Sequence record: OR192075.1
Strand: one strand, 5' to 3'
Origin: Escherichia phage MIZ6
DNA: 64,000 nucleotides
This document shows, in pieces, positions 1,200 through 45,755 of the stretch. Below the pieces are notes generated by a model. That model was not told where the DNA came from, did not search any database, and saw nothing but the letters and a program-made list of their open reading frames with translations. How positions within the stretch are numbered: position 1 is the first letter of the stretch; each line of letters starts with the position of its first letter. The translations under genes were made by a program, and so were the position numbers.

Positions 1200-1233
1200 T
1201 ATTATTCTAATAACCGTTTAAGGATTTTATAAA

Positions 1234-3990
1234 ATGGCAGATTTAAGCAGAATCCAATTTAAACGCACTAGCACTAAAGGTCGTAAACCTGATGCTAGTG
1301 CGATGAATCCGGGGGAATTGGCAATCAACCTTGCGGATCAATATCTTCTTACTAAAAATGATTCCGGTGCTATTATCAATTTAAGTTGTCCTCCGGTGTA
1401 TGACCGACAAGTTAGATTCGCTGGTAAGGTTGACGGTGACAACTATATTTTAGGTAAAACTGCTAACTATATGGATGATTCAACCGCTCGCGACCTTAAC
1501 AAATTTGGTGCGTTTCGAACGAATAATGCTGATGGATGGTCTAACTTGATTCTGAACATTCCTCATTCTAGCGGTAAAGCACACGGTCGCGGGTTTGAAT
1601 TTCAATATGGTTCTAGTTCCTCTCAGGTTAAAACCTATGGCTTTGATCAGGATGGTAACAAGAGATTCAGTTACCGCATGTATCATGAAGGCGATAAACC
1701 TACACCATCGGAATTGAACGTTTACAGCAAACAAGAAGTAGATAGAATGTTTGTTAAAAACGTTAAAATGTCTACTCCTCCCGATGTAAGTCGAGGATAT
1801 TTCAAAATTGCTACCGCCATGATCCCCCAGCAAGGAAAAATGGCATTTATTCGTATCTATGGTGGTAATGGATATAACGTTAACTCTATGGATCAAGTTG
1901 ACTTTGTAGAAATCGTGATTCGTGGTGGGAATGGAAATCCTAAAGGTGTTAGTATTGCAGCATATCGACGAAATGCTTTAAATCAGCTTGAAGTATTTGC
2001 TATTAATACATCTGGTGATAACTATGATATCTATGTAAAATATGGTCGATACACCGATAACGTTATTGTAGAATTTGGAAAAACGGTCGATGTTAATTTA
2101 ACTGTTCATGATGTTCCGGCTTTTTCGGAAGCAAAACCTGCTGGTACTACCTTTGAAGGTCGTGTTATTACGATGTTCAACACCGAAAACAAAGCCGGAA
2201 CGTTGATGTTTGATAATAACTCACAAGCAACCTATGATATTGTGAGCCTTAGCAATGCACCTGATAATAGCCGAAATTATCTGCGTAAATTCCGTAGCAA
2301 AGCGAATGAAACAATATGGCATGAAACTGTTCAAGGTGATGTGTATCGTCTGGCTACTGGTTCCACCGACCAAAAAGAAGTATTAAAAATTGTTGGTAGT
2401 GATGGTTTATTTGTCAATAGACTTCATCTGCAAGGCAATAACGCGATTCGTATGTGGCGTCCTACTGGTTGTAGTAACTATTTTGAATATATGGATCAGC
2501 GAGACGGGGCTAATAAACGTCAAGGCTGGTTTGGTTTTGGTTCTACAGAAACCAACGATTTTCAATGGTATAGTGACGAAGGTAAAAACTTTGTTAAGCT
2601 AGAAGCAAGTGGTCAAGTATCTTTAAGCGCAGGTGCAACCAAAATTGTATACACTAATGGTCAATATGTAGCTGCCAATTCTGATGCATACCGTATGATC
2701 TTTGGTAATTATGGTGCATTCTGGCGTAATGACGGCACTAAAGTTTATCTTCTTTCTACTGCCGAAAATGATCGTTTTGGTGGATGGAATAGCTATCGTC
2801 CATTCATTTATGATTTAACTTCCGGTAACGTTCAATTAGGCGGTGATGGTAACGAAGATGCATTAACGTTAGAATGTGCTTCTCGTGCCGCTCGCTTTAG
2901 TAATGACGTTTACATTAAGAAAGGGCTTTTGACTTTCGACGCTGGGCGATTAAATTCCCGCGATTACTTCCGGTTTAACCATTGGGGCGATAGCAATAAC
3001 GGTCGCGATAACATCCTACAGATTGAAGACAGTCAGGGCGCACATTTTATCACTGAACGTGCTATGGGTACTGGTAACATAACAACACGTTTTAGAGGCT
3101 TTGTACGTGTAGAATCTGGTGAAATTGCATTTGATGCTAACCGTGGTTCTTCTTCGCAATTTAGTCTCCATACATGGGGTAATGAATCACGAAAACAAGT
3201 TTTTGAATGTAAGGATGCAACAAGTTATCATTGGTATACCGAACGTACTGCGGGTGGCACTGGTCCGGTTAAGTTCTCTGTTGCAGGTTCTTTCTATAGC
3301 GGAAGCGATGTTAACGTAGGCGGTAGTCTGAATTTTGGTAATGCTATTCAACGCGGCGCTAGCGTCATTACTATAGATTCTGGTTCTGCGGGTGCTGGTT
3401 CTTTTGCATCTCAACATGATGATAACGTCAAAGCACCTATTTTCCAACGTTTAGACCGTGGTGATGCGTCTATATATGTTCCTTTGATTAAGCAACGTTA
3501 TGTTCAAGGTGCAGTAACATTCTCGTTGGGTATGCTTCTTAACGAAGGTTCATGGCGAGTTCATGTTAAAGGTTCTGGTGTTGAATCTAATACTACCTTC
3601 TATAAAAACGGCGATTTCCAAGCTGGACGCAATGGTAACTTTAACGACGTTTACATTCGCTCTGACTCTCGCCTGAAAATCAACAAGGAAGAGTATAAAG
3701 AGAATGCTACCGATAAAGTAAATAATCTTAAGGTATATTCCTACGATAAGGTTAAATCTTTAACCGACCGTACTGTAATCGCTCATGAAGTTGGTATTAT
3801 TGCTCAGGATCTTGAAAAAGAATTGCCGGAAGCAGTAACAACTTCTAACATCGGCGACCCAGATAACCCAGAAGAGATCTTAACAATTTCTAACTCTGCT
3901 GTCAACGCTCTTTTAATTAAGGCGTTTCAGGAAATGAGCGAAGAATTGAAAGCCGTTAAAGCTGAACTAGCGGAACTTAAAAAGAATTAA
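1234..3990 (+). CDS. 37: Long tail fiber distal subunit gp37-like, with C-terminal intramolecular chaperone (peptidase S74-like) domain
   Basis: N-terminus MADLSRIQFKRTSTKGRKPDASAMNPGELAINL matches T4 gp37 N-terminus; conserved AGAGSFASQ..YVPLIKQRYVQG block; C-terminal ~130 aa resemble the autoproteolytic chaperone domain of T5 pb1 / endosialidase. Confidence 0.8.
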   Translation: MADLSRIQFKRTSTKGRKPDASAMNPGELAINLADQYLLTKNDSGAIINLSCPPVYDRQVRFAGKVDGDNYILGKTANYMDDSTARDLNKFGAFRTNNADGWSNLILNIPHSSGKAHGRGFEFQYGSSSSQVKTYGFDQDGNKRFSYRMYHEGDKPTPSELNVYSKQEVDRMFVKNVKMSTPPDVSRGYFKIATAMIPQQGKMAFIRIYGGNGYNVNSMDQVDFVEIVIRGGNGNPKGVSIAAYRRNALNQLEVFAINTSGDNYDIYVKYGRYTDNVIVEFGKTVDVNLTVHDVPAFSEAKPAGTTFEGRVITMFNTENKAGTLMFDNNSQATYDIVSLSNAPDNSRNYLRKFRSKANETIWHETVQGDVYRLATGSTDQKEVLKIVGSDGLFVNRLHLQGNNAIRMWRPTGCSNYFEYMDQRDGANKRQGWFGFGSTETNDFQWYSDEGKNFVKLEASGQVSLSAGATKIVYTNGQYVAANSDAYRMIFGNYGAFWRNDGTKVYLLSTAENDRFGGWNSYRPFIYDLTSGNVQLGGDGNEDALTLECASRAARFSNDVYIKKGLLTFDAGRLNSRDYFRFNHWGDSNNGRDNILQIEDSQGAHFITERAMGTGNITTRFRGFVRVESGEIAFDANRGSSSQFSLHTWGNESRKQVFECKDATSYHWYTERTAGGTGPVKFSVAGSFYSGSDVNVGGSLNFGNAIQRGASVITIDSGSAGAGSFASQHDDNVKAPIFQRLDRGDASIYVPLIKQRYVQGAVTFSLGMLLNEGSWRVHVKGSGVESNTTFYKNGDFQAGRNGNFNDVYIRSDSRLKINKEEYKENATDKVNNLKVYSYDKVKSLTDRTVIAHEVGIIAQDLEKELPEAVTTSNIGDPDNPEEILTISNSAVNALLIKAFQEMSEELKAVKAELAELKKN

Positions 3991-4030
3991 GGAAACTCCC
4001 AGGGAAGGGAACTACTAAGGAGAAACGGCT

Positions 4031-4270
4031 ATGGTCTATAATATCGTCATTGGCGCTTTGTCTAATTTCGGAATGAAATTATTGTCAAAGTTAATTAGTG
4101 AAAAGATGCTCACTAAAATTTTCTTCTATTGCGCTCGTCGTCTTGCGGCTTATACCAATACGCCAATTGATGATCGTTTTGTGGAAGAACTTTATAAGGA
4201 GTTTAATAAAGATCAGTCAGAAGATAGTAACGAGCAAGATAAATCTAGTGATAGTCAACTACCTAAATAA
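4031..4270 (+). CDS. Hypothetical small protein (79 aa), hydrophobic N-terminus, acidic C-terminus
   Basis: Strong SD AAGGAG 8 nt before ATG; sits between gp37 and holin. Confidence 0.4.
   Translation: MVYNIVIGALSNFGMKLLSKLISEKMLTKIFFYCARRLAAYTNTPIDDRFVEELYKEFNKDQSEDSNEQDKSSDSQLPK
4263..4270 (+). promoter_or_regulatory. Candidate late promoter element (CTAAATAA) upstream of holin
   Basis: Octamer 34 nt upstream of holin ATG, same spacing as upstream of gp37. Confidence 0.25.
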
Positions 4271-4303
4271 GAGTACACTGTCATAGTTATCTTAGGGCAT
4301 TAT

Positions 4304-4960
4304 ATGCAAGTTTCTGAAAAAGGGAAAGACTTTGCTATCTCAAATGTCCTGCGCGCTATTTTCACAACTAAAAGCACGGAGTTGCTCGTACTTCGTGTTT
4401 TTGCTGCCGTCGTGTTGTCCATATTGGCATTTGTCGTTTATAGTAAAAACGAGTTATTTGCGCTTTATAAAGAGACTCGTTATGAGACTTATGCTCACAT
4501 TCTCCAGGTAGAGAAAGACCGCAATTTTGATAATGCAGCACAGGAGCAGTTACAGATAGTTCATGTGTCGGCTGATGCCGATTTTTCTGCTGTTTTTAGT
4601 TTTCGTCCGAAAAACCTAAACTATTTTGTTGATTTGGTGGCATATGAAGGAAAGCTACCACACACAATCGATGAAAAAAATTTAGGCGGATTCCCTATCA
4701 ATAAAACGAGTGAAGAATATCGTAGGCATCTTTTAGGTAAATCATATTTTACCGATAAAGATTTCCAGTATATTCCATCAAGAGAAAAGAAATTAGAGAA
4801 TATCGATATAGGTTTCATGTATTCTTGTCCTATATTCAATCTCGATAATGTCTATTCTGGTAGTATCGCCATTTCATGGAAGAATAAACCGGATATTGAC
4901 ATTGAGAATTTAGATACTCTTTGCAATCAATCTGCCAGAATCCTCGGAAGGATTAGATAA
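4304..4960 (+). CDS. t: Holin T
   Basis: 218 aa; strong similarity to T4 holin t (YETY, QLQIVH, FSAVFSFRPKNLNYFVD, ARILGR motifs); ATG start. Confidence 0.9.
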   Translation: MQVSEKGKDFAISNVLRAIFTTKSTELLVLRVFAAVVLSILAFVVYSKNELFALYKETRYETYAHILQVEKDRNFDNAAQEQLQIVHVSADADFSAVFSFRPKNLNYFVDLVAYEGKLPHTIDEKNLGGFPINKTSEEYRRHLLGKSYFTDKDFQYIPSREKKLENIDIGFMYSCPIFNLDNVYSGSIAISWKNKPDIDIENLDTLCNQSARILGRIR

Positions 4961-4963
4961 CTT

Positions 4964-4998
4964 AAAGGGGAAGCCTTTCGGCCTCCCCTTCTTTTTAT
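4964..4998 (+). terminator. Intrinsic terminator after holin
   Basis: Hairpin aggggaagcctttcggcctcccct followed by tctttttatt. Confidence 0.5.
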
Positions 4999-5243
4999 TG
5001 GCGCATAGACGCGCCTGAATCGCATTTTGACGCTGTATGATGAAAACAGGTAGCGTACCAGTCATCGGCTTGTTTGTCTTCGTCAGAAAACGCGTAATTT
5101 CGTTGTACGCCGTTTTCTACTTTGACCAGTGCGATAGCTGTTTCTGGAAGATCAATCAATCGGACAAAATCACCATCTTCCCACTCTACACGAGCAATAT
5201 CATAGCCCATCTCAAAGTATACAATCGCTTGTTCTAATTTCAT
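4995..5243 (-). CDS. Hypothetical protein (82 aa)
   Basis: ATG overlaps stop of upstream gene (ATGA coupling). Confidence 0.4.
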   Translation of the reverse strand: MKLEQAIVYFEMGYDIARVEWEDGDFVRLIDLPETAIALVKVENGVQRNYAFSDEDKQADDWYATCFHHTASKCDSGASMRQ

Positions 5244-5569
5244 TCTGGAAACTTCCCGTAAACATTCTCTGCCAGCTTACGTGCGTCTTTTACAATATCT
5301 TTCATGTAATGACTATAATTTTTAGCTAGATCAATGATGCAATCAACAAAGAAGTAATAGCGTCGCAGTGCTACCATCTCAACATCTTCAAGATGACCAT
5401 TTTCTCCAATCTCTGAAATATGTTTAAATTCCTTTCGGATCGCGTCCATCGCGACATTAACTTCTTTTATAATATCTTTCGTATTATATGCACCTCGACT
5501 AATCAAAATTTTGGTTATGTCCTCTGCTTTTTCGTGAAAGTTGTCAATTTCAAACTCGATCATAATCAC
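5240..5569 (-). CDS. Hypothetical protein (109 aa)
   Basis: Track ORF; shares C-terminal pattern with ORF 5678..6010 (possible paralogs). Confidence 0.45.
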   Translation of the reverse strand: MIMIEFEIDNFHEKAEDITKILISRGAYNTKDIIKEVNVAMDAIRKEFKHISEIGENGHLEDVEMVALRRYYFFVDCIIDLAKNYSHYMKDIVKDARKLAENVYGKFPE

Positions 5570-5677
5570 CTCTCATAATTTCACGCTGTTGTGTCAACAT
5601 TTTTTCGTGGTTTGCTAATTCTATACCTTGTAATAGCATAACCAGTGCAATTTTCAATGATTCATCATCTTTCATAA

Positions 5678-6010
5678 TCAAAATTTATCGAAAATATTCT
5701 CTGTCATAATTCTTGCTTCGTCGATTATTTTCGTCATGTTCATGGTGTAGTTATGATCATTTAGTGCTTTAATGACAACGAGCAAGGAATCTAAAAACAC
5801 TCGATACCGGGTATATTCTACGCTATTTGTGAATACCGATGTTTTCTCTACTTTATCGATCAGATAGCCTAAAACCGATAGCGCCTCGTTTACTTCCCTT
5901 GTTACTTTATCGGCGCTAAACAACACCGGATAAAGACGCGGTGTGATTAACCGCGCTGCCTCTTTCAATTCGGTCGCTTTCCAGGATTCATATTTGTCAT
6001 AGTTAAACAT
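5678..6010 (-). CDS. Hypothetical protein (110 aa)
   Basis: Track ORF; possible paralog of 5240..5569. Confidence 0.45.
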   Translation of the reverse strand: MFNYDKYESWKATELKEAARLITPRLYPVLFSADKVTREVNEALSVLGYLIDKVEKTSVFTNSVEYTRYRVFLDSLLVVIKALNDHNYTMNMTKIIDEARIMTENIFDKF

Positions 6011-6022
6011 TGTATAATCTCC

Positions 6023-6355
6023 TTACAGATGAAAACCTGTTACGATCACCGCATCGATCGTACCGCTAGGAATAAACGGTTCGCCCTCTTTTATTTCAAC
6101 TTTGAATTGATGCCATTTCGCTAATACTTCTTCCGGTACACCCAGCGATTCGGCGTCTGCTTTAGTTTCATCCATAATCCAACTAGGCTGCATGAGAGCA
6201 TAGTTTACATAGTCCATTTCTGGGGTCATGTCATCAATGTTAATATATTTGCAGTTGACGCGTTTCAGAATTTCAAATTCTTTATTGTCAACCTGTACCA
6301 TGTATAATTCAGTAGTTTCTGGAATCAGTTCCCAAACAATCAGTACATTTTTCAT
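6023..6355 (-). CDS. Hypothetical protein (110 aa)
   Basis: Track ORF in minus-strand early gene array. Confidence 0.45.
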   Translation of the reverse strand: MKNVLIVWELIPETTELYMVQVDNKEFEILKRVNCKYINIDDMTPEMDYVNYALMQPSWIMDETKADAESLGVPEEVLAKWHQFKVEIKEGEPFIPSGTIDAVIVTGFHL

Positions 6356-6363
6356 AGTTCACC

Positions 6364-6732
6364 TCACTTAACAAAGATTTTCTTTAATGCTTTCAGGATC
6401 GTTGCTTCCGGCGCTTCTTCCGGTGGAGGAAGCAATTCTACCACTTCCTCTTCCAACTCGATATAGTCTACCAGATATTCTACATAGAATGCAAGTGCTT
6501 CCATGAAATTAGATGCTACATCCGATTCACCACACGCACCTACATGCATTGTATAAACACCACTGCGATCAAGTTTGTGGATGCTTCCCAGATAGTTCCG
6601 GTTATACCAGACTTCCCACACTTTCAGCTTTCCAGTTTTTGTTGCTGTTTTATAATCGGTTTCGTAATGATGCAATTGACGTTGCAAATCATTGATAATA
6701 ACACATTTTTCGTAATTGTTTTGAATTTCCAT
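6364..6732 (-). CDS. Hypothetical protein (122 aa)
   Basis: Track ORF, tightly packed with neighbours. Confidence 0.45.
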   Translation of the reverse strand: MEIQNNYEKCVIINDLQRQLHHYETDYKTATKTGKLKVWEVWYNRNYLGSIHKLDRSGVYTMHVGACGESDVASNFMEALAFYVEYLVDYIELEEEVVELLPPPEEAPEATILKALKKIFVK

Positions 6733-6742
6733 GATGTAATCC

Positions 6743-6934
6743 TCACTTATCGTTAAGAAGTTCTAAAACTTTCTGTCGTACTTTGTCAATATTGGTTGAT
6801 TCAAAAACTGTACGGTATCCCCAGCTTTGACCGTATGAGCGCGAGCAATCCCCATAACCCCATTGTTCAACCTGATAATATTCAAGGAATGGGTGCTGCC
6901 GAACTATGATACCATCGCGATTAAAAATTACCAT
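6743..6934 (-). CDS. Hypothetical protein (63 aa)
   Basis: ATG preceded by conserved GAGGATTATATT initiation region. Confidence 0.4.
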   Translation of the reverse strand: MVIFNRDGIIVRQHPFLEYYQVEQWGYGDCSRSYGQSWGYRTVFESTNIDKVRQKVLELLNDK

Positions 6935-6957
6935 AATATAATCCTCACGTCAACAAC

Positions 6958-7236
6958 TTATTTTCGGTTGTACTTCTGCCACTTTCGGTAATACTGCTTG
7001 TAATATTGTTTAATGTTTGGTGGTTCGTCACTATACATGTTATCAACCATCATGTCAATAAGACCTTCCGGTGTTTGATAGTTACCCGCTCGAATGAGTT
7101 CCTTAATCAAAAGATCTTGTGTCGCTTTATACTTGACAATAACAACTGTCTTTTCTGCCTTTCCAATTCCGATCCGGTCGTTAGCTCTCATAGCATCCCA
7201 CCAATCTTTTTTAAACTTCATGTTGTTAAATTTCAT
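6958..7236 (-). CDS. Hypothetical basic protein (92 aa)
   Basis: Track ORF. Confidence 0.4.
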   Translation of the reverse strand: MKFNNMKFKKDWWDAMRANDRIGIGKAEKTVVIVKYKATQDLLIKELIRAGNYQTPEGLIDMMVDNMYSDEPPNIKQYYKQYYRKWQKYNRK

Positions 7237-7239
7237 AAT

Positions 7240-8040
7240 TTAACCCTTCTTATATTCGCAAACATATTGAGTACCATAATCATAGCTAATGCGACCTTTC
7301 TCGATGACTTCAAAGCGGATTTCATCGTTTTCCCCTACCCACATTTTGTACTCGTTGAAGTATCCTGCTACATCCGGTTTGCTCATACCAACAACCATAT
7401 TTTTATATTGTTTGCTGCGTGTCAGATTTGATTTAAACACTTCGCGCTCATCAACATATACGAAAGAAGACAATTCACCTTCGGTCATGGTCATTTTCAG
7501 CTTGCCGCCCTTGTTGCCATAAGTAGAGTTGCCATACAATGGATCTTTGCGGCTGTCTGTTTCAATACCATCAATGATTTTCCATGTAAATTTTGCAATG
7601 CACTGATAAGTGATAGATCCAGAGATTTTCTCTTCTTTCTTCTGTTCTTCCACCACTTTTTCTTCCTGTTTCGGTTGTTCTTCTTCAACCTTCGCAGAAG
7701 TCTCTGAATCGCTTTCTGACTCGGTTTCTTCTTTAGGTAATACATTCATCAAGTTTTGGATTTGAGCGTTGTATACAGCCTCCAGTGGCTGGATCTGTCC
7801 GATATTGATCATTGTATCACGAACAGTTTTATTCCAGTTGCGTTGCTCTTGTTTCAGAGACGGATCAATCTTAACAGCCTTAACATACACCTCATGAAGT
7901 TTCGAATCCAGTGCGGAGATTGACTCATTAGCACAAATAAACTTCTCTGATTTGGTAGTGGCTTTAGCGCAATCAAAGGACGCAGCATTAGCACCGAAAG
8001 CAGTAGCGGAAAGAACGATCGCAGCGATAATGTTTTTCAT
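7240..8040 (-). CDS. Secreted protein with DUF1311 / LprI-like (lysozyme-inhibitor family) N-terminal domain
   Basis: Signal peptide MKNIIAAIVLSATAFGANA; FDCAKATT..EKFIC..LDSKLHEVY motif typical of DUF1311; acidic linker; SD GAGGAA; own promoter. Confidence 0.6.
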   Translation of the reverse strand: MKNIIAAIVLSATAFGANAASFDCAKATTKSEKFICANESISALDSKLHEVYVKAVKIDPSLKQEQRNWNKTVRDTMINIGQIQPLEAVYNAQIQNLMNVLPKEETESESDSETSAKVEEEQPKQEEKVVEEQKKEEKISGSITYQCIAKFTWKIIDGIETDSRKDPLYGNSTYGNKGGKLKMTMTEGELSSFVYVDEREVFKSNLTRSKQYKNMVVGMSKPDVAGYFNEYKMWVGENDEIRFEVIEKGRISYDYGTQYVCEYKKG

Positions 8041-8074
8041 AATATATTCCTCAATGTTTTGTCTTGATGGGAGT

Positions 8075-8103
8075 ATCTTACTACTCCCTTAATCCGGTGT
8101 CAA
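8075..8103 (-). promoter_or_regulatory. sigma70-like early promoter (TTGACA-17-TAAGAT) embedded in GGGAGTA..TACTCCC palindrome
   Basis: Minus-strand reading of tgtcaa (8098-8103) and atctta (8075-8080); palindrome 8069-8088. Confidence 0.4.
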
Positions 8104-8114
8104 CTACTTTTAAA

Positions 8115-8414
8115 TTATTTTCGCCATTCACCGGAAACAATAAAGTTTGTAAAGTGATCGTGGTCCGTGATAACGTCATTAAGTACCATATGTGGATACA
8201 CTTTAGTGATAATTTTACTAAGTACCATATGCGGATATGCTTTAGTGTAATCACGTTTACGATCAGTCATCCAGCCAACGAAAGTTGGTGCAAAGTACGG
8301 TACACCGTCAGACGATGCCATATTAAACCCTTTATCAACCATAAATGCAGCCGCCCTAAGATTTTTAATTGAAGTAGTGCGACTAATTTCAAAAACTTTA
8401 TCGGTAAAATTCAT
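8115..8414 (-). CDS. Hypothetical protein with internal tandem repeat
   Basis: Start moved to internal ATG (MNFTDK); contains KAYPHMVL / KVYPHMVL duplicated segment. Confidence 0.4.
   Translation of the reverse strand: MNFTDKVFEISRTTSIKNLRAAAFMVDKGFNMASSDGVPYFAPTFVGWMTDRKRDYTKAYPHMVLSKIITKVYPHMVLNDVITDHDHFTNFIVSGEWRK
8181..8251. repeat. Direct tandem repeat (~33 bp units, ~39 bp period) inside ORF 8115..8414
   Basis: aagtaccatatgtggatacactttagtgataat repeated as aagtaccatatgcggatatgctttagtgtaat. Confidence 0.5.
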
Positions 8415-8415
8415 T

Positions 8416-8625
8416 TTAAGCCCCCGCTCGTGCATTAATACGCATTTTCTGCATAGCCATGATCTGGTTTACTGCTTCTTCTTTACGTTCTTGCGTGATA
8501 ACGTGACCAGATTCCGCAAACTCTCCCGCAACTTCTTCTACGATCTCGCGAACTTGAGAACGTCCAAAGATGCGGTTTCCTTCGTAGCTCATAAACTCGG
8601 TTACTACTTGCTCGATAGATTTCAT
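8416..8625 (-). CDS. Hypothetical protein (69 aa)
   Basis: SD AAGGAG; own promoter upstream. Confidence 0.45.
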   Translation of the reverse strand: MKSIEQVVTEFMSYEGNRIFGRSQVREIVEEVAGEFAESGHVITQERKEEAVNQIMAMQKMRINARAGA

Positions 8626-8655
8626 GTGATTCTCCTTTCGTTTCGGTGTGGGAGT

Positions 8656-8684
8656 ATGTTAATACTCCCATTTCTTTACGTCAA
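8656..8684 (-). promoter_or_regulatory. sigma70-like promoter (TTGACG-17-TAACAT) with GGGAGTA..TACTCCC palindrome
   Basis: Palindrome gggagtatgttaatactccc at 8650-8669 overlaps -10. Confidence 0.35.
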
Positions 8685-8691
8685 CCAGTTT

Positions 8692-8934
8692 TTAGAAATT
8701 TTTCGCTTCTTCTTCGGTCATCATCACCGCGCATTCGTGCATAACTTTGAAAACCGGGTCAATCATATCGAATGCTTCGCTGGACAGTTTACGAGAAGCG
8801 ATTTTGATTGCTTCAACGTCTTCTACTACAGGAACAAAAACAGTTTTCAGTTCGTCGAGCACGGCAGCTTCTTTTTCATTCAGGAAGATCCCAGCGTCGT
8901 ACAGTGCAACTTCGATAACATTAACTTTAACCAT
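8692..8934 (-). CDS. Hypothetical acidic protein (80 aa)
   Basis: SD GGAGGA; own promoter upstream. Confidence 0.45.
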   Translation of the reverse strand: MVKVNVIEVALYDAGIFLNEKEAAVLDELKTVFVPVVEDVEAIKIASRKLSSEAFDMIDPVFKVMHECAVMMTEEEAKNF

Positions 8935-8967
8935 TTTATTTCCTCCAGTTCGTTTCGGTATGGGAGT

Positions 8968-8996
8968 ATAATACTACCGATGACCTTTGGCGTCAA
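8968..8996 (-). promoter_or_regulatory. sigma70-like promoter (TTGACG-17-TATTAT)
   Basis: Minus-strand reading of cgtcaa and ataata; degenerate GGGAGTA palindrome. Confidence 0.35.
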
Positions 8997-9198
8997 CTGC
9001 TTTTTTATTATTTTCGTGAAAATTTTTCGTCGCCTCATGTGCTTTTCGCTGGGCTTCTTGTTGTGCTTGCTGGCGTGCTGCCTCTTGTGAAGCCATAACG
9101 GAAGCATTTGCAGCAGTTACAGCCGCTACCATCGCTGCGGTATTAGCATTTACAGTACATGCACTAGCCAGCAAAGCAATTGCAATCATTTTCTTCAT
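8974..9198 (-). CDS. Small secreted or lipoprotein-like protein (74 aa)
   Basis: N-terminal signal peptide MKKMIAIALLASAC with Cys; Ala/Gln-rich mature part. Confidence 0.4.
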   Translation of the reverse strand: MKKMIAIALLASACTVNANTAAMVAAVTAANASVMASQEAARQQAQQEAQRKAHEATKNFHENNKKAVDAKGHR

Positions 9199-9365
9199 AG
9201 TTTCCCCTTTAGGTTATCTTCGACCTTCACCCATTCCGCGTATTCTTGCGCGGCTACTTTCGGATTTAGTCCGTCTTCGTACATTGCTTCAAGTAATTCT
9301 TCGTCGGTGGGCTTATACCCTAGATAAGCCTCCACCTGATTTTTCCAAATTTTATACCAGTTCAT
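9195..9365 (-). CDS. Hypothetical protein (56 aa)
   Basis: Start moved to internal ATG (MNWYKIW) to remove overlap with upstream gene. Confidence 0.3.
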   Translation of the reverse strand: MNWYKIWKNQVEAYLGYKPTDEELLEAMYEDGLNPKVAAQEYAEWVKVEDNLKGKL

Positions 9366-9369
9366 ATTA

Positions 9370-9642
9370 TCACCAGTCAAGAGCGCGTGTCTCTGCGTCT
9401 TCCCATGCTTGATCCATAACAGCCTTGAAAACATATTCTAAAGTATCATCTTTAGAGAATCCGAAGACCTTAGACGGAATATCTTCAATTGCTACTCCCG
9501 CGACTTCTGCATTACGCGCTTGGCAATAATGCAACTCTAAGTTATCGAGATAGCGACCGCCTAATTTCTCCATATCATCCCAGCATTTCCAGTAACCTAC
9601 TTTATTTGCAATCGCTAACACCTTGCTGTTTTCGTTGTTCAT
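9370..9642 (-). CDS. Hypothetical protein (90 aa)
   Basis: Start moved to ATG (MNNENSK) with SD AAGGAG; promoter and terminator upstream. Confidence 0.4.
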   Translation of the reverse strand: MNNENSKVLAIANKVGYWKCWDDMEKLGGRYLDNLELHYCQARNAEVAGVAIEDIPSKVFGFSKDDTLEYVFKAVMDQAWEDAETRALDW

Positions 9643-9673
9643 CTTTGATTCTCCTTTTGTTTGGTATGTGTGT

Positions 9674-9702
9674 ATTATGCAATGATGGATTTGTGAAGTC
9701 AA
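9674..9702 (-). promoter_or_regulatory. sigma70-like promoter (TTGACT-17-CATAAT)
   Basis: Minus-strand reading of agtcaa and attatg. Confidence 0.35.
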
Positions 9703-9715
9703 CAACTTTTTAAAA

Positions 9716-9742
9716 TAAAAAAGCCGACCACACGGATCGGCT
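9716..9742 (-). terminator. Intrinsic terminator
   Basis: Hairpin agccgaccacacggatcggct; minus-strand RNA followed by U-run. Confidence 0.45.
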
Positions 9743-9752
9743 TAATAATCAG

Positions 9753-10145
9753 TTACTTACTAAATTTCTTTTTGGCTTCGTCTACCGCATGAGATGCCAG
9801 TACCGCAGCCGCATGTGCACTTTTATCTGTGTTGCAGAGAACACCCAGATAAACATCACGCCAAAGTTTAATCATCTCGTAGATCATATCAATATCATTT
9901 TCTTGTTTGTTGGCGATGCTATTCGTCGTTATCTGGTAAGGTAACGGCTTAATCTGTACTGGTTCCGCCATCGGGCTAAACGGTTTCGGATCAGTCATCG
10001 GATTAATTGATGGCGATGTTTTCCATACGTCATTATTCCACGGTTTAACGGTTGTACCGTATATTTTATAAGGATTTTTGTCTGGATCAACCATCCATGC
10101 ATGATGGATACCTAAACCATTTGAAGTGATGCGTCGTTCAGTCAT
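9753..10145 (-). CDS. Hypothetical protein (130 aa)
   Basis: ATG with SD GAGGGGG. Confidence 0.45.
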   Translation of the reverse strand: MTERRITSNGLGIHHAWMVDPDKNPYKIYGTTVKPWNNDVWKTSPSINPMTDPKPFSPMAEPVQIKPLPYQITTNSIANKQENDIDMIYEMIKLWRDVYLGVLCNTDKSAHAAAVLASHAVDEAKKKFSK

Positions 10146-10344
10146 GTTTTACCCCCTCTGATAATTCTTTCATCAAGCTGTCGATCTTTGCTCTGTGTTC
10201 TGGCGTGTTTGTCATCTCTGCTAATTTGCTCAGAGATTCACTGGTGATCCGGTTGGATTCTTCCAGTGTTTCAACGACAATTGGCACAATCTTTTTATTG
10301 TTGTACAGAAATGCAATATAACCGCCTTCTGGATATTCTTTCAT
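10138..10344 (-). CDS. Hypothetical protein (~68 aa)
   Basis: Track start is TTG; moved to ATG (MKEYPEGG). Confidence 0.4.
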   Translation of the reverse strand: MKEYPEGGYIAFLYNNKKIVPIVVETLEESNRITSESLSKLAEMTNTPEHRAKIDSLMKELSEGVKHD

Positions 10345-10346
10345 AA

Positions 10347-11711
10347 TCAACCCTTCTTAAGTTCTTTAAGATCTTTCTTATATTCCTTCATTGCGGTCGT
10401 CTTTGTCCAATACTCATATTCACTATGATGTTTCTCGGCATCTTTGACCAGTCGATCATACTCTTCTTGAGTAACGCTATACAATGGCATAGAAACTAGC
10501 TTATCGGCGTATGGACGCAGTTTTTCATGTCCATTGATGGATTGCATTACATCGGCCTTTTTCTTTCCCTGTAGCTCGATTTCGCCATTAATTACGAGAT
10601 CGATAAATTCGGCTTTAGCCATTGCATAATTGTATGCTTCCAGCGTTTCCGCTTGCATCAATTCAATGCGTTTATCGACATACCCTAATCGGATTTCGAC
10701 GAATCGACGGATCAGATCGCTCGCTTTCTCGAATACTTCTACTAAACCACGTTCATTAACCACTACGATATTCTGGGCTACTAACTGTGTTAGTTTAAAA
10801 TCCTTCATGATTTGCTCATGTCGAGCGGATTCATCTTCGCTTTTGAAATAATCGCGTTTCAGTGTTACTTCAAATCTGAATCCATCCTTAGAGCAACGGT
10901 CATTATATGAGACAATCAGATCTTTTTCTTCCAGTGCATCCAGTACCGCTACATATTCTTCACGGTCGAACTTATAAGGGACTTCTGATATTGTCAGCTT
11001 AGTCTTGCCGTTTAGTTCATATGTACCCTCAAGAATCACACCATCGCGATCATCTCGCGGGATAACTTTACCCGTGAATTTCGGGAATTGAACACTAGGT
11101 TCTTTATCCAGTTTTCCGGCAAGTGCTAGCTCTGTGCATTCAATGAGGCTTTCCAGTGAATGCGGTAAAATGTCAGTTTTATACCCTGTAGCAATACCAC
11201 TAATACCATTAGCCAATACCATTGGCACAACTGGCAAGTAGAACGCTGGCGGGATGTGTTCCAGATCTTCGTGCTTAGGTGCGCAATTCATATCTTTATA
11301 GATTTTAAAGAAGTTTTCATGCACGCGAGCAAAGATATAACGTGCCGCACCTGCTTTCTGGACTAAACGCGATCCGAAGTTACCTTGACCGTCAAGCAGT
11401 GGAGTATTATTGCTCCATGTATTCGCCATAAGTGATCCGGCTTCTACGGCATTAGTTTCCCCGTGGTGATAACCCAACTCGGCAACACCAGATCCAATAT
11501 CTGCCATCTTACGGAATTTCTTACGGTCGCCTTTACTCTTTTGCAAAGCACATTCCATAACAAAGCGTTGCACTGGTTTAAGCCCATCCACTAATTGAGG
11601 AATCCCGCGTTCCTCGGCAGAATAGATCGCATATTCCTTAGCTTCATTATGTACAATGCTTTCAAGGCTGCGGTAAGTAAATGTGTTTACAATTTGACTA
11701 ATTTTATCCAT
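10347..11711 (-). CDS. 52: DNA topoisomerase II medium subunit (GyrA-like)
   Basis: Strong similarity to T4 gp52 (DGLKPVQRFV, GYHHGE, LLDGQGNFGSR); track GTG start replaced by ATG (MDKIS) with SD GAGGTG. Confidence 0.9.
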   Translation of the reverse strand: MDKISQIVNTFTYRSLESIVHNEAKEYAIYSAEERGIPQLVDGLKPVQRFVMECALQKSKGDRKKFRKMADIGSGVAELGYHHGETNAVEAGSLMANTWSNNTPLLDGQGNFGSRLVQKAGAARYIFARVHENFFKIYKDMNCAPKHEDLEHIPPAFYLPVVPMVLANGISGIATGYKTDILPHSLESLIECTELALAGKLDKEPSVQFPKFTGKVIPRDDRDGVILEGTYELNGKTKLTISEVPYKFDREEYVAVLDALEEKDLIVSYNDRCSKDGFRFEVTLKRDYFKSEDESARHEQIMKDFKLTQLVAQNIVVVNERGLVEVFEKASDLIRRFVEIRLGYVDKRIELMQAETLEAYNYAMAKAEFIDLVINGEIELQGKKKADVMQSINGHEKLRPYADKLVSMPLYSVTQEEYDRLVKDAEKHHSEYEYWTKTTAMKEYKKDLKELKKG

Positions 11712-11718
11712 CTTCACC

Positions 11719-12081
11719 TCATACACGCTTACAAATCACATTCTTTACTTTATCAGATTTATCAGCCCAATCCAATAGCCATTTTAACGGAAGGATTGAC
11801 ACAATAAACGGGGCAGCAATCAAAGCAAACATGATACACCTGATAATCAGGAAAACGCAAGTGACAAAACTAGCGATAGTGATCCCGACAAAACAAAATA
11901 CCATAGAAAACAGAGTAATGATATAGAAAGGCCAGAATACCCACTCCCGCATCTTAACGCCTTTGTATTCTCTGAATTGCTTAAAATCTACAAACAACTC
12001 TCGGATAGACGCGTACAGGACCGAAAAATCATCTTTCATTGCTCTGAATGAGCAATCTTCTATTTTAGAATGACCTAGCAT
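11719..12081 (-). CDS. Hypothetical membrane protein (120 aa)
   Basis: Two or three hydrophobic helices; ATG start. Confidence 0.4.
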   Translation of the reverse strand: MLGHSKIEDCSFRAMKDDFSVLYASIRELFVDFKQFREYKGVKMREWVFWPFYIITLFSMVFCFVGITIASFVTCVFLIIRCIMFALIAAPFIVSILPLKWLLDWADKSDKVKNVICKRV

Positions 12082-24191: not shown

Positions 24192-24710
24192 TTAGTAGCC
24201 GCGTTCTTGACGGGCGAAGTTTTCAGCATTTTTCAGATAGTACAGCTTGAAGATATCCTTAGCGGTTAAACCTAAGCCCAGCATTTTAATCAGCACAAAA
24301 TGCCAGATATCGATCAATTCCATCGCAATTTCGGTTTTATCGTCATCTGACAGATCAGCAAATTTACGCGCTCGTGCTTCGCCGTGGTTCTTCTTCCACA
24401 CTTTAGTAATTGCGCTTGCATCTTTGCCATTTGACATGCCACCCAGGGCAACATAAAGTTCTCGTGTCTCGTCGTCGATTGCGTCATCCCACAACTTCAT
24501 CCAGTCAAGGATCTCCCCGCAAGTTTCCAGCTTATCAGGATGCGGCACCCACTCAAATTTATCAGCTAGTGCGACCTGTAAGCCTTTTTGCATATCTAAC
24601 ATTACTTGCAGCGGGTCTTTGCCGCTAGTGATTGCCTCGGAATACGCAATACCAGCTTTAGACATAGTTTCGTCGCTAACCAGACCAGCACAAGAATTAA
24701 ATTCTGACAT
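24192..24710 (-). CDS. 56: dCTP pyrophosphatase (dCTPase/dUTPase family)
   Basis: Strong similarity to T4 gp56 (DPLQVMLDMQ, HPDKLET, IFKLYYLKNAENFARQERGY); track GTG start replaced by ATG. Confidence 0.8.
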   Translation of the reverse strand: MSEFNSCAGLVSDETMSKAGIAYSEAITSGKDPLQVMLDMQKGLQVALADKFEWVPHPDKLETCGEILDWMKLWDDAIDDETRELYVALGGMSNGKDASAITKVWKKNHGEARARKFADLSDDDKTEIAMELIDIWHFVLIKMLGLGLTAKDIFKLYYLKNAENFARQERGY

Positions 24711-24724
24711 ATTCACCTCATTAA

Positions 24725-25753
24725 TTAAAATTTACAATATTTCATAAACCGCATTTTAGCCATCAGACCTTGTACGGTGTTCTCTTTGATATATTCCATG
24801 ATCTGGTCGCGTGTAGCGCCCTCGTCCTGAATCATGGCGTTAACGTCTTTAGAATGCCACGGGCAACGGTCCCACAATACAATCTTTTCCCCTGCATTGA
24901 TAAACTTTTCCAGTCGGTGCATTGTATCGGCAGACCGTGGTTCCGCATCAAGTACAAACACTCGCTGGTCTGGGAAAGGTATTTCATCTAATCCCAAAGT
25001 ACCGCCAGTAATTGCACACCCGTTATCAATAAACAATGAATCGATCGGACCTTCTAAGAAATACACTGGTTTACTCGGATCGGCGCGTTCAAGACCATAG
25101 ACCTTACTCGCTAACTCATGAGTTTTAATCGTCATATATTTGGTCTTTCCGTAATCCTTTCTCAATGCTCGCCCCTGAATGGATTCTATCTTGTTCTCGC
25201 GGTTAAAGATAGGAATCACTAAACGCGGTTCAGGTTGTGGATTCTTGAAAGTATCAGCCTTAATGTGATTTGCTACCTTTTGCCATTCTCTCGTGAAATA
25301 CAGAAGATCCCATTTATCGTGGGGAATGCAACGATCACTGACATACTTTATTATAGGATGATTAGCCGGGAGAGTATCTAACCTCTCACAGAAAGGCAAT
25401 GTTTGCACTTTCTTAATCTCCGGCTTTTCTACCTTTTTCAGTGGCTTGAACGTGGTGTTCTTGTGGTCGCCTTGTTCCTTCCGTCGTTCAATAAGCCATT
25501 CCCTGAATAGGTCCGGCTTATATTGTTTGAGAAATTCACCTAACGGCTGATTGTAGTTACAGTTGAAACAACCGCATCGCAAACTATCCTTATAGGTATA
25601 GATACGGAATCGCGCTTGAGTATGATTTTTCTTTGAGTCACCGCAGATCGGACAACTACAGACCAGCGTAAATGAGCTAGTATGCAACCGTTTAAAATTT
25701 CGTTCGCCGTATATGGCTTTTTCCGCTATTTCATAATCTGCGTAGTAAATCAT
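24725..25753 (-). CDS. 61: DNA primase
   Basis: 342 aa; N-terminal zinc ribbon CSCPICGD...CFNC and TOPRIM core; same length as T4 gp61. Confidence 0.85.
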   Translation of the reverse strand: MIYYADYEIAEKAIYGERNFKRLHTSSFTLVCSCPICGDSKKNHTQARFRIYTYKDSLRCGCFNCNYNQPLGEFLKQYKPDLFREWLIERRKEQGDHKNTTFKPLKKVEKPEIKKVQTLPFCERLDTLPANHPIIKYVSDRCIPHDKWDLLYFTREWQKVANHIKADTFKNPQPEPRLVIPIFNRENKIESIQGRALRKDYGKTKYMTIKTHELASKVYGLERADPSKPVYFLEGPIDSLFIDNGCAITGGTLGLDEIPFPDQRVFVLDAEPRSADTMHRLEKFINAGEKIVLWDRCPWHSKDVNAMIQDEGATRDQIMEYIKENTVQGLMAKMRFMKYCKF

Positions 25754-26694: not shown

Positions 26695-27330
26695 TTAATC
26701 TAATGTAGAAAGCAAATGTTTTGTTTCTTTCAGTTGTCGTTCAAGATTTTTGCGTTTCTCTTTAAGTTGCATTTTAGCATTATTTCGCTCTCTTGTAACC
26801 TCTTTATCAATGCTCTTATTCCAGTTATCAATATCAGAATAAGTTGGCATACCCAATTCTAGACCTAATGCGGTTGGATGCAGGGTAACAGTCCATAAAC
26901 CGCTAATCTTCTTAAACAGGTCGGGGTGTAGTGTACTATCTACATCTTCCGGTGTCAACTCTTTTTCTTCTTTCAGTGGTGGGATCTCGTCATATGGTTC
27001 CAGTGCATTTACTTTAATATCAGATACCTCATCAAAGAATCCGCGTACATCCGCAGGAAATACACAAGCAATTTCCCAACCGTGATCACGCAGAGAAGTA
27101 ATATTTTTCACTCCCCCACCATGTGTGATGATTGATGTGACATTGCCATCAAGGTCCACCGAATTTACGAGAAATGGCTTATCGTCTGTCAGATCATTAT
27201 AAAACTGTGCTTCGGCTGTAGTCATCTCCAGAAACAGATCTCGGATCGGACGACCATCAGGTGCGTTACCTTCCTTGAGAGTATAAAAGCGACTTACGAT
27301 CCATTTTGGCGGTAAAGAATTAGCGATCAT
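26695..27330 (-). CDS. Hypothetical protein (211 aa)
   Basis: Track ORF between helicase and primase genes. Confidence 0.45.
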   Translation of the reverse strand: MIANSLPPKWIVSRFYTLKEGNAPDGRPIRDLFLEMTTAEAQFYNDLTDDKPFLVNSVDLDGNVTSIITHGGGVKNITSLRDHGWEIACVFPADVRGFFDEVSDIKVNALEPYDEIPPLKEEKELTPEDVDSTLHPDLFKKISGLWTVTLHPTALGLELGMPTYSDIDNWNKSIDKEVTRERNNAKMQLKEKRKNLERQLKETKHLLSTLD

Positions 27331-30244: not shown

Positions 30245-30433
30245 CTATTCAGTTAATCCGTAATACTTTAATTGCTTCATTGTTATTCGATCTTTGTAGT
30301 GCTCTTGAATTAACTTTTTCATCGCATCAACATCGATCGTCACAAATACTTCGTTGCTGTGATTTCCGTGAACTTTCTTGAAATGCTCTATGCCTTCCTC
30401 ACGTTCACGTTTAATCTTTTCAATGTCTCTCAT
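30245..30433 (-). CDS. Hypothetical small protein (~62 aa)
   Basis: Only ORF between uvsX and polymerase; track GTG start moved to ATG. Confidence 0.35.
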   Translation of the reverse strand: MRDIEKIKREREEGIEHFKKVHGNHSNEVFVTIDVDAMKKLIQEHYKDRITMKQLKYYGLTE

Positions 30434-38645: not shown

Positions 38646-38889
38646 TAATCCACTCCGCAATCACACATTCCATAATATTAAATGCTAACACATCTTCATC
38701 AATGTTGTAAACACTTGCCGCCTTCACTTTAACTAATGTGTCTCTGCGATCTGGCAACATGATCACATAATCCAGTGTCGCAGGATCATATGTCATAAAG
38801 GGATCAACATAAATCCCTTTATTCAATGCCAGATATTCGCGAAGACCTTCTATAACCCTGTGTCTAAGGTAGGTCATCGATAGAATCAT
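38626..38889 (-). CDS. Hypothetical protein (87 aa)
   Basis: Track ORF in segment between genes 47 and 46. Confidence 0.4.
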   Translation of the reverse strand: MILSMTYLRHRVIEGLREYLALNKGIYVDPFMTYDPATLDYVIMLPDRRDTLVKVKAASVYNIDEDVLAFNIMECVIAEWINGKVKF

Positions 38890-41168: not shown

Positions 41169-41456
41169 TTACAGCATACTTAATACAGTTTGCCGTGTAC
41201 TAATCCACATAGCAGAAAGCAGTTCTGGCGTGTGTGGCTGTTTGTAGATATCACGTAACTTTCCGATAGCGTAGATATACGCATCGCGGTTATCATCGAT
41301 GATAGCTTGTTCAGCCCACCGCTTAAGGCGTGCAATCTCTCGCGAGTTCTTACGCAAGATCTTTTCCGCTTTCTTAGCGGCTTTAGCCTCTAGTTCTGCT
41401 TGTACTTTGTCTACTTCATTCACTGCAATCTGGTCATGCTGTTCATTGCAAGTCAT
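41169..41456 (-). CDS. Hypothetical protein (95 aa)
   Basis: Track ORF. Confidence 0.4.
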   Translation of the reverse strand: MTCNEQHDQIAVNEVDKVQAELEAKAAKKAEKILRKNSREIARLKRWAEQAIIDDNRDAYIYAIGKLRDIYKQPHTPELLSAMWISTRQTVLSML

Positions 41457-44917: not shown

Positions 44918-44918
44918 A

Positions 44919-45743: not shown

Positions 45744-45755
45744 AATATATTCCCC

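Follow-up and report, generated by a model that had tools for sequence, protein, structure and literature searches.

The stretch analysed here (the window) comprises 64,000 nucleotides (nt) of Escherichia phage MIZ6 (sequence record OR192075.1), and it holds the three gene neighbourhoods in which phage T4 encodes a set of landmark genes: motA and asiA of the middle-transcription system, gene 42 for dCMP hydroxymethylase, and b-gt and a-gt for the glucosyltransferases that act on hydroxymethylcytosine (hmC). Here we observed that these landmarks are missing from all three sites, although gene 56, whose product in T4 serves hmC-DNA synthesis as a dCTPase, is kept. A first-pass annotation, made from the letters alone, had reported this combination under the span 4995–10350, in which the second and third sites are not included; the absence itself was borne out at each of them.

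By megablast, window positions 4000–12000 matched 58 phage records, all of them RB49-like, with 100% identity to the Escherichia phages MIZ2 and MIZ3 (Krischvirus). The interval is ~96–97% identical to RB49 (isolate record OZ035808), Phi1 and GEC-3S, and the gene 56 locus 94–100% identical across the group. The window corresponds to MIZ2 positions ~64001–128001, apart from a shift of one base upstream of ~3,990; whole-genome statements below refer to the annotated MIZ2 genome, of which 163,000 of 163,666 bp were covered (the other 666 bp take in the gene for the small terminase subunit and the last part of that for the tail sheath stabilizer). G+C content is ~40% across the window, from ~4995 onwards the genes lie on the minus strand, and no tRNAs were found in the window. 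The genes on which the argument rests are as follows (window positions; aa, amino acids).

4304–4960, plus strand: holin gene t, left anchor of the T4 t-asiA-arn-motA-52 region (site 1); 48.5% identity to T4 t, E = 5e-67; also a holin in the MIZ2 annotation
10347–11711, minus strand: gene 52, topoisomerase II medium subunit, right anchor of site 1; 50% identical to T4 gp52, E = 1e-143
24192–24710, minus strand: gene 56 homologue, 172 aa (dCTPase/dUTPase family, all-alpha NTP pyrophosphohydrolase); 51.4% identity with full-length T4 gp56, tblastn E = 2e-53
29163–30233, minus strand: uvsX, anchor of site 2; 63% identical to T4 UvsX, E = 2e-157
30245–30433, minus strand: 62-aa ORFan, the sole gene between uvsX and 43; phrog_12120, unknown function, no T4 match
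30495–33173, minus strand: gene 43 DNA polymerase, anchor of site 2; 55% identical to T4 gp43
40053–41078, minus strand: gene 47, anchor of site 3 (tblastn against T4)
41169–41456, minus strand: a-gt.4 homologue (tblastn against T4; site 3 Pfam matches DUF2654 and DUF5491)
41458–41691, minus strand: a-gt.5 homologue (tblastn against T4; the same two site 3 Pfam matches)
41675–42208, minus strand: gene 55, anchor of site 3 (tblastn against T4)
54093–54905, minus strand: Dam-family N6-adenine DNA methyltransferase; 46% identical to T4 Dam, PF02086, TIGR00571 above cut-off, DPPY motif

Gene repertoire and synteny were established by gene-by-gene tblastn of the annotated coding sequences (CDS) at 4031–55336 against T4, and by a second tblastn with 39 T4 proteins as queries on the whole MIZ2 genome. 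At site 1, holin t and gene 52 are separated by 17 small minus-strand open reading frames (ORFs), according to both the ORF list and the MIZ2 annotation, with no MotA or AsiA homologue among them. At site 2, the 62-aa ORFan noticed in the first-pass annotation stands alone; T4 encodes segA, b-gt, 42, imm and imm.1 at this place. At site 3, where that annotation had seen no a-gt beside gene 55, there are just the a-gt.4 and a-gt.5 homologues between 47 and 55, and a-gt, mobB, a-gt.2 and a-gt.3 were not found by tblastn against T4; the surroundings are thus conserved, and a-gt and mobB are specifically missing. Genome-wide, motA, asiA, b-gt, a-gt, alc, denB, ndd, arn and imm had no credible tblastn match, while gp56, dam, denA, cd, frd, gp1, srd, a ModB-like protein, gp33, dsbA and gp55 are present. 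One arn match (E = 0.006) was discarded as spurious, lying on the opposite strand inside the region of baseplate gene 7.

The window represents the early and replication arm of a Krischvirus phage of the RB49 type, and the landmark absences are very probably the ordinary biology of that group. RB49, Phi1, JSE, GEC-3S and MIZ2/MIZ3, the ‘pseudo-T-even’ phages, share 94–100% DNA identity and the same gene order with it; they likewise lack motA, asiA, 42, a-gt, b-gt, alc, denB, ndd and arn and possess 56, denA, cd, td, frd, 1 and dam. Among T4 relatives, only the T-even phages, JS98, RB69, CC31, the Acinetobacter phages and some Aeromonas phages have gene 42, denB and alc (Petrov et al., 2010, Table 4), and RB43- and RB49-group phages have been described as having just DenA and dCTPase-dUTPase homologues, plus a cytosine methyltransferase homologue (2021 survey). 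The Krischvirus row of the most recent tabulation (dCTPase present, hmC absent, denB absent, denA present, ndd absent, alc absent; 2025 survey, Table 4) is exactly the outcome of our tblastn searches. The observation of a repertoire without T4 landmarks is thus correct but already known, the repertoire having been published between 2002 and 2025; the first-pass annotation observed it accurately, but did not recognize it as the documented RB49 repertoire, nor that T4 gp56 is also a dUTPase.

This last point bears on why gene 56 should be there at all. As the first-pass annotation stated, gp56 is encoded in the window, and the homologue is full length (172 versus 171 aa in T4), with 51.4% identity over 173 columns by tblastn and 52.4% in a MAFFT alignment. 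It matches Pfam dUTPase_2 (25.7 bits; cut-off 22.9), PRA-PH and phrog_173, and the acidic motifs DDExxE and ExxD are kept in both alleles that occur among Krischviruses (see below), the reference RB49 allele reading ADE in the first of them. A sequence search of the PDB gave no useful match for gp56; a single-sequence AlphaFold2 (AF2) model was all-helical (pLDDT 56), and Foldseek matched it to no PDB entry at E ≤ 0.001. The locus is present in 58 of 58 RB49-like records, and more broadly the only T4 relatives without gene 56 are the giant phages of Aeromonas and Vibrio, whose dUTPases are host-like (Petrov et al., 2010, Table 4). T4 gp56 removes dCTP, dCDP, dUTP and dUDP (T4 reference record); because the enzyme is also a dUTPase, the paradox of a gp56 without gp42 is removed. 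A genome-wide search for a second dUTPase or a trimeric Dut gave nothing credible (an E. coli Dut probe reached E = 0.025 in tblastn, over a local match of 28 aa, and E = 3.9 in phmmer), which leaves gp56 as the sole candidate for a dUTPase encoded by the phage.

We suggest that gp56 would be retained because it has a second job that is independent of hmC: as the one dUTPase of the phage, it would prevent uracil from entering DNA. With the dCMP deaminase, thymidylate synthase, dihydrofolate reductase and dNMP kinase of the phage (the nucleotide genes kept are Cd, Td, Frd, gp1, NrdAB and Tk), it would channel dUTP and dUDP, and probably some dCTP and dCDP, into dTMP for a 40% G+C genome. Judging from these homologies, its role is most likely twofold: dUTP sanitation, and supply of dUMP (with some dCMP via Cd) for dTMP synthesis. 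A T4 hydroxymethylase mutant makes no DNA, as the dCTPase depletes dCTP (Kutter, 2018). Because an efficient dCTPase without gp42 thus abolishes T4 DNA synthesis, which would be intolerable for a phage with cytosine-containing DNA (C-DNA), we infer by analogy that the dCTPase activity of Krischvirus gp56 is attenuated or balanced. The likeness to T4 gp56, a member of the MazG, HisE and dimeric dUTPase superfamily, is otherwise close (full-length match, DExxE and ExxD motifs, dUTPase_2 and PRA-PH matches); the difference would lie in an enzyme that works without gp42 and whose dCTPase activity in vivo is presumably lower or balanced.

Alternatively, gp56 could still be mainly a dCTPase that feeds dCTP and dCDP through dCMP and dUMP into dTMP and biases the pools towards an A+T-rich genome, dUTP hydrolysis being secondary. 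The genome's 40% G+C, against ~51% in E. coli, would suit such a role, as would the retention of dCMP deaminase, Td, Frd and gp1 and the ~52% identity to T4 gp56 with conserved catalytic motifs. Both roles of gp56 are listed by Petrov et al. (2010). However, in the absence of gp42 the dCTPase of T4 works well enough to stop C-DNA synthesis (Kutter, 2018), a level that a C-DNA phage could not bear, and since the genome encodes no other dUTPase, dUTP hydrolysis would not be dispensable. We regard a mainly dCTPase role as rather unlikely, though it deserves to be kept in mind.

The gene 56 of the window also proved to be a mosaic allele. Its product is just 69% identical to the gp56 of reference RB49, Phi1 and GEC-3S, whereas the flanking modB-like gene and gene 61 show 96–99% DNA identity, and DNA identity falls to 65–89% exactly over 24200–24800. 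Synonymous divergence (dS) from the RB49 reference allele is 1.15 in gene 56 compared with 0.08–0.12 in the flanking genes, and the ratio of nonsynonymous to synonymous divergence (dN/dS) in gene 56 is 0.21; these values therefore indicate that the gene was probably imported by recombination from a distant lineage and then held under purifying selection, and not that it evolved rapidly in place. The window's allele is common to ~15 records. An HNH homing endonuclease gene lies between 56 and 61 in eight records, all eight with the window's allele and none with the RB49 reference allele; the window itself carries the divergent allele without an endonuclease gene, 56 and 61 being separated by 14 nt (24711–24724). 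In T4, marker exclusion at gene 56 is said to depend on the homing endonuclease SegF, which reportedly targets the gene 56 of T2 (work of Belle and colleagues from 2002). A sharply bounded allele that is perfectly linked to an HNH gene wherever that gene occurs is reminiscent of the SegF/56 arrangement: in the eight Krischvirus records, too, a free-standing homing endonuclease gene adjoins gene 56, although the enzyme is of the HNH and not the GIY-YIG type, and the window carries the allele alone.

Turning to middle transcription, the first-pass annotation had taken the lack of MotA and AsiA homologues between holin t and gene 52 to suggest that there is no T4-type middle-promoter system, and both statements held when the search was widened. 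MotA joins an N-terminal activation domain to a C-terminal DNA-binding domain of the double-wing type, and AsiA is an anti-sigma70 protein of ~90 aa. In addition to the blank tblastn result for the two T4 proteins in the MIZ2 genome, the interval ORFs gave no Pfam match to either family at E ≤ 1 (the families to be expected being, we take it, PF09114 and PF09158 for MotA and PF09010 for AsiA) and no PHROGs match. Profiles from custom alignments of database homologues (7 AsiA sequences; 20 MotA sequences, down to 34% identity) were run with filters off against all 2,603 stop-to-stop ORF segments of at least 30 aa in the genome, and the best E was 0.15 for AsiA, which is noise (T4 control, 2.5e-51), and only 0.003 for MotA (T4 control, 2.7e-98). 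This last match falls on a 392-aa ORF at 51152–52330 and was rejected, being a 30-residue local match with an hhalign probability of 7%. When both profiles were compared by hhalign with 75 CDS of the window, all probabilities stayed below 15%, those for AsiA at 1.7% at most.

The promoter statistics tell the same story. On the coding strand of the window, Mot-box promoters [(a/t)(a/t)TGCTT(t/c)A, N11–13, TAnnnT] occur at chance level (0 strict and 1 core, versus 0.1 and 1.1 expected), compared with 4 strict and 10 core in the syntenic T4 control region (0.2 and 2.0 expected). Promoters of the sigma70 consensus (TTGAC[AT]-N16–18-TA[TC]A[AC]T) are ~70-fold enriched on the same strand, with 14 found versus 0.2 expected, and several stand 5′ of replication genes: 30505–30478 (upstream of 43), 33234–33206 and 35260–35232. 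Searches for a motA orthologue or middle promoters in RB49 had failed before, while AsiA orthologues were recorded in RB69, 44RR, Aeh1 and KVP40 (Nolan et al., 2006; PMC1524935). We suggest that transcription would follow a two-stage programme, in which early genes are read from strong sigma70-consensus promoters, many of them packaged with stem-loops as promoter-early stem-loop (PeSL) cassettes, and late genes are driven via gp55 and gp33, with no sigma appropriation by MotA and AsiA; start sites would be of the sigma70 type for the early class and TATAAATA for the late class. Desplats and colleagues reportedly saw just two temporal promoter classes experimentally, in work dating from 2002. 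The parallel with T4 extends to the same neighbourhood (t ... 52), the same host RNA polymerase and a conserved late system (gp55, gp33, gp45), and ends where MotA, AsiA and Mot-box enrichment are replaced by sigma70-consensus promoters 5′ of the replication genes.

Could a non-homologous replacement of MotA and AsiA be encoded among the ORFans between t and 52, or elsewhere, and support a middle mode with other factors and promoter motifs? Exactly at the asiA/motA locus there are 17 ORFans of unknown function, and modifiers of RNA polymerase are present (Srd-like, ModB-like, Alt, RpbA). KVP40 and Aeh1 keep AsiA without MotA (Nolan et al., 2006), and the system is therefore evolutionarily plastic. 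Set against this, no sequence or profile similarity was detected, Mot boxes are at chance, the replication genes that T4 transcribes from middle promoters carry sigma70-consensus promoters here, and middle promoters were sought in RB49 without success (Nolan et al., 2006; PMC1524935). Such a replacement strikes us as improbable.

With regard to cytosine, the first-pass annotation had left an either/or: the hydroxymethylase and glucosyltransferase genes lie elsewhere in the genome, or the phage modifies cytosine differently or not at all. The whole-genome search that it proposed was run on MIZ2 and found no hydroxymethylase or glycosyltransferase genes (no gp42, a-gt or b-gt). The one ThyA-family protein of the genome (410 aa, encoded outside the window) has an active site of the thymidylate synthase (TS) type, reading GLPFNVASY where E. 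coli thymidylate synthase has GLPFNIASY, and it scores above the cut-off of the NCBIfam thymidylate synthase equivalog TIGR03284. In T4 dCMP hydroxymethylase, Asp takes the place of the Asn that specifies dUMP; the phage protein keeps this Asn and is therefore a true thymidylate synthase. A gp42 match at E = 0.006, considered as a hidden hydroxymethylase, falls on the same gene, td, and was rejected on the strength of the Asn and the TS equivalog models. The td product, encoded on the minus strand of MIZ2, also carries a ~170-aa in-frame insertion between the equivalents of E. coli ThyA residues 82 and 110, where L. casei TS has a smaller insert.

The branch that places the missing genes elsewhere thus falls, and the branch of no modification gains direct backing: DNA of RB49, the type phage, is cut by HpaII and NheI and so contains neither hmC nor glucosyl-hmC (ghmC) (Yaung et al., 2014; PMC4041780), and the Krischvirus TB34 has canonical cytosine by high-performance liquid chromatography/mass spectrometry (HPLC/MS) (PMC13390438). 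The restriction-sensitivity check that the first-pass annotation had called for is therefore already in print for RB49, and to that extent the finding is already known. We suggest that the phage of the window would likewise replicate its DNA with ordinary cytosine, and in such DNA gp42, the glucosyltransferases, alc, denB and arn would therefore not be needed. Compared with the T4 hmC/glucosyl-hmC network, 56, 1 and denA are present and syntenic, but 42, both glucosyltransferases, alc, denB and arn are gone, the ThyA homologue is a dUMP-specific thymidylate synthase, and the DNA of the group is cytosine-containing by experiment (RB49, TB34).

DNA modification of other kinds was also considered. 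Within the window, the Dam-family methyltransferase is the sole DNA-modification enzyme encoded; three DNA methyltransferases are annotated genome-wide, namely Dam, an NPPF N6-type enzyme and a 223-aa protein. The latter (minus strand, outside the window; phrog_757) has FPPC and IENPV motifs that resemble motifs IV and VI of C5-methyltransferases, and its orthologue in TB34 is annotated as a hypothetical C-5 cytosine methylase; searches of Pfam, NCBIfam and the PDB gave no match for it. It is too short for a normal target-recognition domain. The larger window proteins without assigned function that were scanned gave no glycosyltransferase or dioxygenase signal in Pfam and PHROGs scans, and proteins of 211 aa (26695–27330), 190 aa (38886–39458), 274 aa (44919–45743) and 489 aa (42249–43718) were dismissed on this basis as hidden modification enzymes. 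Site-specific methylation by the phage methyltransferases is at most possible.

A recent report complicates this picture. The Krischvirus SAP is BrxU-sensitive, and its DNA was found to contain about one-third 5-hydroxymethyldeoxycytidine (5-hmdC) and two-thirds alpha-gentiobiosyl-methyldeoxycytidine (alpha-gentiobiosyl-mdC), for which no pathway was identified, although TB34, with its canonical cytosine, is 99.96% identical to SAP (PMC13390438, 2026). We compared the two genomes (SAP, OZ034687; TB34, OX001802), with MIZ2 as the outgroup. The main alignment holds 66 difference events: ~40 are single-base homopolymer undercalls in TB34, eight are single-base insertions in TB34 at GGTCTA/TAGACC, and 14 are substitutions that without exception turn CCSGG in SAP into CCWGG in TB34, with three other substitutions besides; one 79-bp PeSL cassette, holding no credible enzyme gene, occurs in SAP only. 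MIZ2 sides with SAP at nine of the 11 placeable CCSGG sites and at all four placeable of the eight GGTCTA indel sites, and in the TB34 annotation many essential genes are split (nrdB, topoisomerase II, uvsW, 43, uvsX, 47). The errors therefore belong to the TB34 assembly, and in genetic terms SAP and TB34 are the same: what separates them is almost all artefact, the PeSL cassette being the one real difference. The miscalls hit 14 of the 32 CCSGG sites and eight GGTCTA sites in TB34, and might mark target sites of orphan methyltransferases, for which the C5-like protein (223–238 aa) and the NPPF N6-type enzyme would be candidates.

The SAP genome itself has no homologue of 42, a-gt, b-gt, alc or denB. 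Its extra DNA relative to MIZ2 consists only of homing endonuclease genes, an insertion in terL, and variation in the tail-fibre and LprI-like ORFs; one more unmatched segment is the small-terminase stretch that lies outside the MIZ2 sequence compared. The nucleoside profile of SAP is that of seven T6-like Tequatroviruses in the same collection (PMC13390438), and because of this match we judge an admixed stock to be the likeliest source of the modification.

Taken at its word, the SAP report would favour a cryptic cytosine hypermodification in Krischviruses, this phage included, through enzymes that are related neither to gp42 nor to the glucosyltransferases of T4, with gp56 acting as a true dCTPase. 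BrxU sensitivity and the modified nucleosides (PMC13390438) speak for it, as do the retention of gp56, gp1 and denA and the many ORFs of unknown function. Against it stand the lack in SAP of homologues of 42, a-gt, b-gt, alc and denB and of any extra enzyme genes relative to MIZ2, the near-complete reduction of SAP–TB34 differences to artefacts with MIZ2 on the side of SAP, the unmodified DNA of TB34 by HPLC/MS (PMC13390438), the cutting of RB49 DNA by HpaII and NheI (PMC4041780), and the ability of RB49 to transduce plasmids (published surveys). We consider it very improbable, and put just as little weight on a variant in which unrelated enzymes convert cytosine to hmC or glycosyl-hmC in some isolates or under some conditions, gp56, gp1 and denA being the remnant of a pathway. 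That the missing genes merely lie outside the window can be put aside almost entirely: the first-pass annotation did rest on 64 kb of a ~164-kb genome, but tblastn and profile searches of the whole MIZ2 genome found none, SAP gave the same outcome, and the published pangenome tables agree.

Several points nonetheless weigh against reading the absences as ordinary Krischvirus biology with unmodified cytosine. About 60% of the ORFs are without known function, which leaves room for non-homologous analogues; a dUTPase-dominant role of gp56 is deduced from homology and gene content; a C5-methyltransferase-like protein is encoded outside the window, and the motif-specific miscalls of TB34 (CCSGG, GGTCTA) hint at site-specific methylation; and SAP has been reported with 5-hmdC and gentiobiosyl-mdC, for which no pathway is known (PMC13390438).

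In place of asiA, arn and motA, the span 4995–10350 holds 17 exchangeable early ORFans, which form a hyperplastic region of the type described by Arbiol et al. (2010). Its ORFs each belong to a PHROG family of unknown function or to none, and its content differs by isolate (coverage 88–100% among the records listed). The features between t and 52, with the 16 ORFans that follow the first occupying 5240–10344 on the minus strand (ORF list and MIZ2 annotation), are as follows (SD, Shine–Dalgarno sequence).

4961–4994, bidirectional: terminator hairpin GAAGGGGAGGCCGAAAGGCTTCCCCTT between the convergent t and ORF 4995–5243, read from the sequence
4995–5243, minus strand: 82-aa Tad2-like (DUF2829) ORF in the syntenic slot of asiA; PF11195 E = 2.4e-6, phrog_1048 E = 3e-19
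5240–5563 and 5678–6010, minus strand: paralogous ORFans of 107–110 aa, both phrog_9457
5550–5681, minus strand: 43-aa ORF between the phrog_9457 paralogues, unannotated in MIZ2 and annotated in SAP, TB34 and JSE
6023–6355, minus strand: ORFan
6364–6732, minus strand: 122-aa ORFan, weakly similar to the T4 arn.4 region (29% over 62 aa, E = 1e-5)
6743–6934, minus strand: ORFan
6958–7236, minus strand: ORFan
7240–8040, minus strand: 266-aa protein with signal-peptide-like N-terminus, N-terminal LprI (lysozyme inhibitor, DUF1311) domain above the Pfam cut-off, acidic linker and unknown C-terminal domain
8041–8114, minus strand: PeSL-type cassette with -35 TTGACA, GGGAGTA/TACTCCC stem-loop over the -10, SD and ATG (sequence, fold and promoter scan)
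8115–8414, minus strand: 99-aa ORF with internal tandem duplication KAYPHMVLSKIIT / KVYPHMVLNDVIT, its PHROG match falling in two stretches
8416–8625, minus strand: ORFan
8626–8691, minus strand: PeSL-type cassette with -35 TTGACG, GGGAGTAT/ATACTCCC stem-loop over the -10, SD and ATG (promoter scan, sequence and fold)
8692–8934, minus strand: ORFan
8935–8973, minus strand: PeSL remnant related to the 8626–8691 cassette
8974–9198, minus strand: ORFan
9195–9362, minus strand: ORFan; the longer ORF 9195–9434 is unannotated in MIZ2, its orthologue annotated in SAP and TB34
9370–9642, minus strand: ORFan
9643–9752, minus strand: intrinsic terminator AAGCCGATC...GGTCGGCTT with T-run, then early promoter TTGACT-17-CATAAT with SD
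9753–10145, minus strand: ORFan
10138–10344, minus strand: ORFan

The Tad2-like ORF (Tad2 standing for Thoeris anti-defence 2) is not AsiA (hhalign probability 0.3%). It covers positions 1–71 of the 73 in the PF11195 profile (28.4 bits; cut-off 25), a PDB sequence search gave no match, and an AF2 model from shallow input (pLDDT 60) had meaningless Foldseek matches. The ORF at 6364–6732 is the only T4-related gene remaining in the interval; in T4 the arn.4 region sits just downstream of motA. ORF 9195–9434 matches phrog_8655 (E = 6e-28) through residues 21–72, and the real gene probably starts at an internal Met and is 9195–9362. As the phage lacks T4 sp and imm, one might speculate that the protein at 7240–8040 is a periplasmic lysozyme inhibitor in superinfection exclusion. 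The ORFans in general are probably host-takeover or anti-defence genes, the Tad2-like and secreted LprI-like proteins being examples.

The predicted cassettes at 8114–8041 and 8691–8626 are further copies of the PeSL element described in RB49 and Phi1 (Arbiol et al., 2010), with which they share a -35 of TTGAC(A/G), a G-rich stem-loop between or over the -10, an SD and an ATG, and a place 5′ of hyperplastic-region ORFans. The hyperplastic regions of the Krischvirus relatives are likewise rich in PeSL elements.

Elsewhere in the window, four tandem paralogues of phrog_5347 lie on the minus strand at 44441–46773 (44441–44917, the C-terminal part of 44919–45743, 45756–46241 and 46246–46773) and are weakly similar to ‘mRNA metabolism modulator’ families of the goF type. 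The 489-aa protein at 42249–43718 (minus strand), which adjoins gene 55, has an N-terminal DEAD/DEAH helicase domain just above the Pfam cut-off, belongs to phrog_2467 and has no T4 counterpart. The distal tail-fibre ORF at 1234–3990 (plus strand) encodes 918 aa in the window, compared with a MIZ2 CDS of 1233–3920; the cause is the 1-base difference upstream of ~3,990, which may be a frameshift or a sequencing error at the 3′ end of the gene, in either the window or the MIZ2 sequence.

In finding these T4 genes absent we rediscover the defining repertoire of the RB49 group, which matters little as such; its value is one of calibration, as a reminder that the core genes of T4-like phages do not include the T4 ‘landmarks’. 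If anything here is new, it is the gene 56 mosaic and the SAP/TB34 observations. If the SAP report is taken at face value, it would imply a cryptic Krischvirus pathway to hmC and glycosyl-hmC; the artefacts that separate SAP from TB34 argue instead for a non-genetic explanation of this published puzzle, most likely a mixed stock, and the motif-specific miscalls in TB34 suggest where the target sites of the orphan methyltransferases of these phages may lie.

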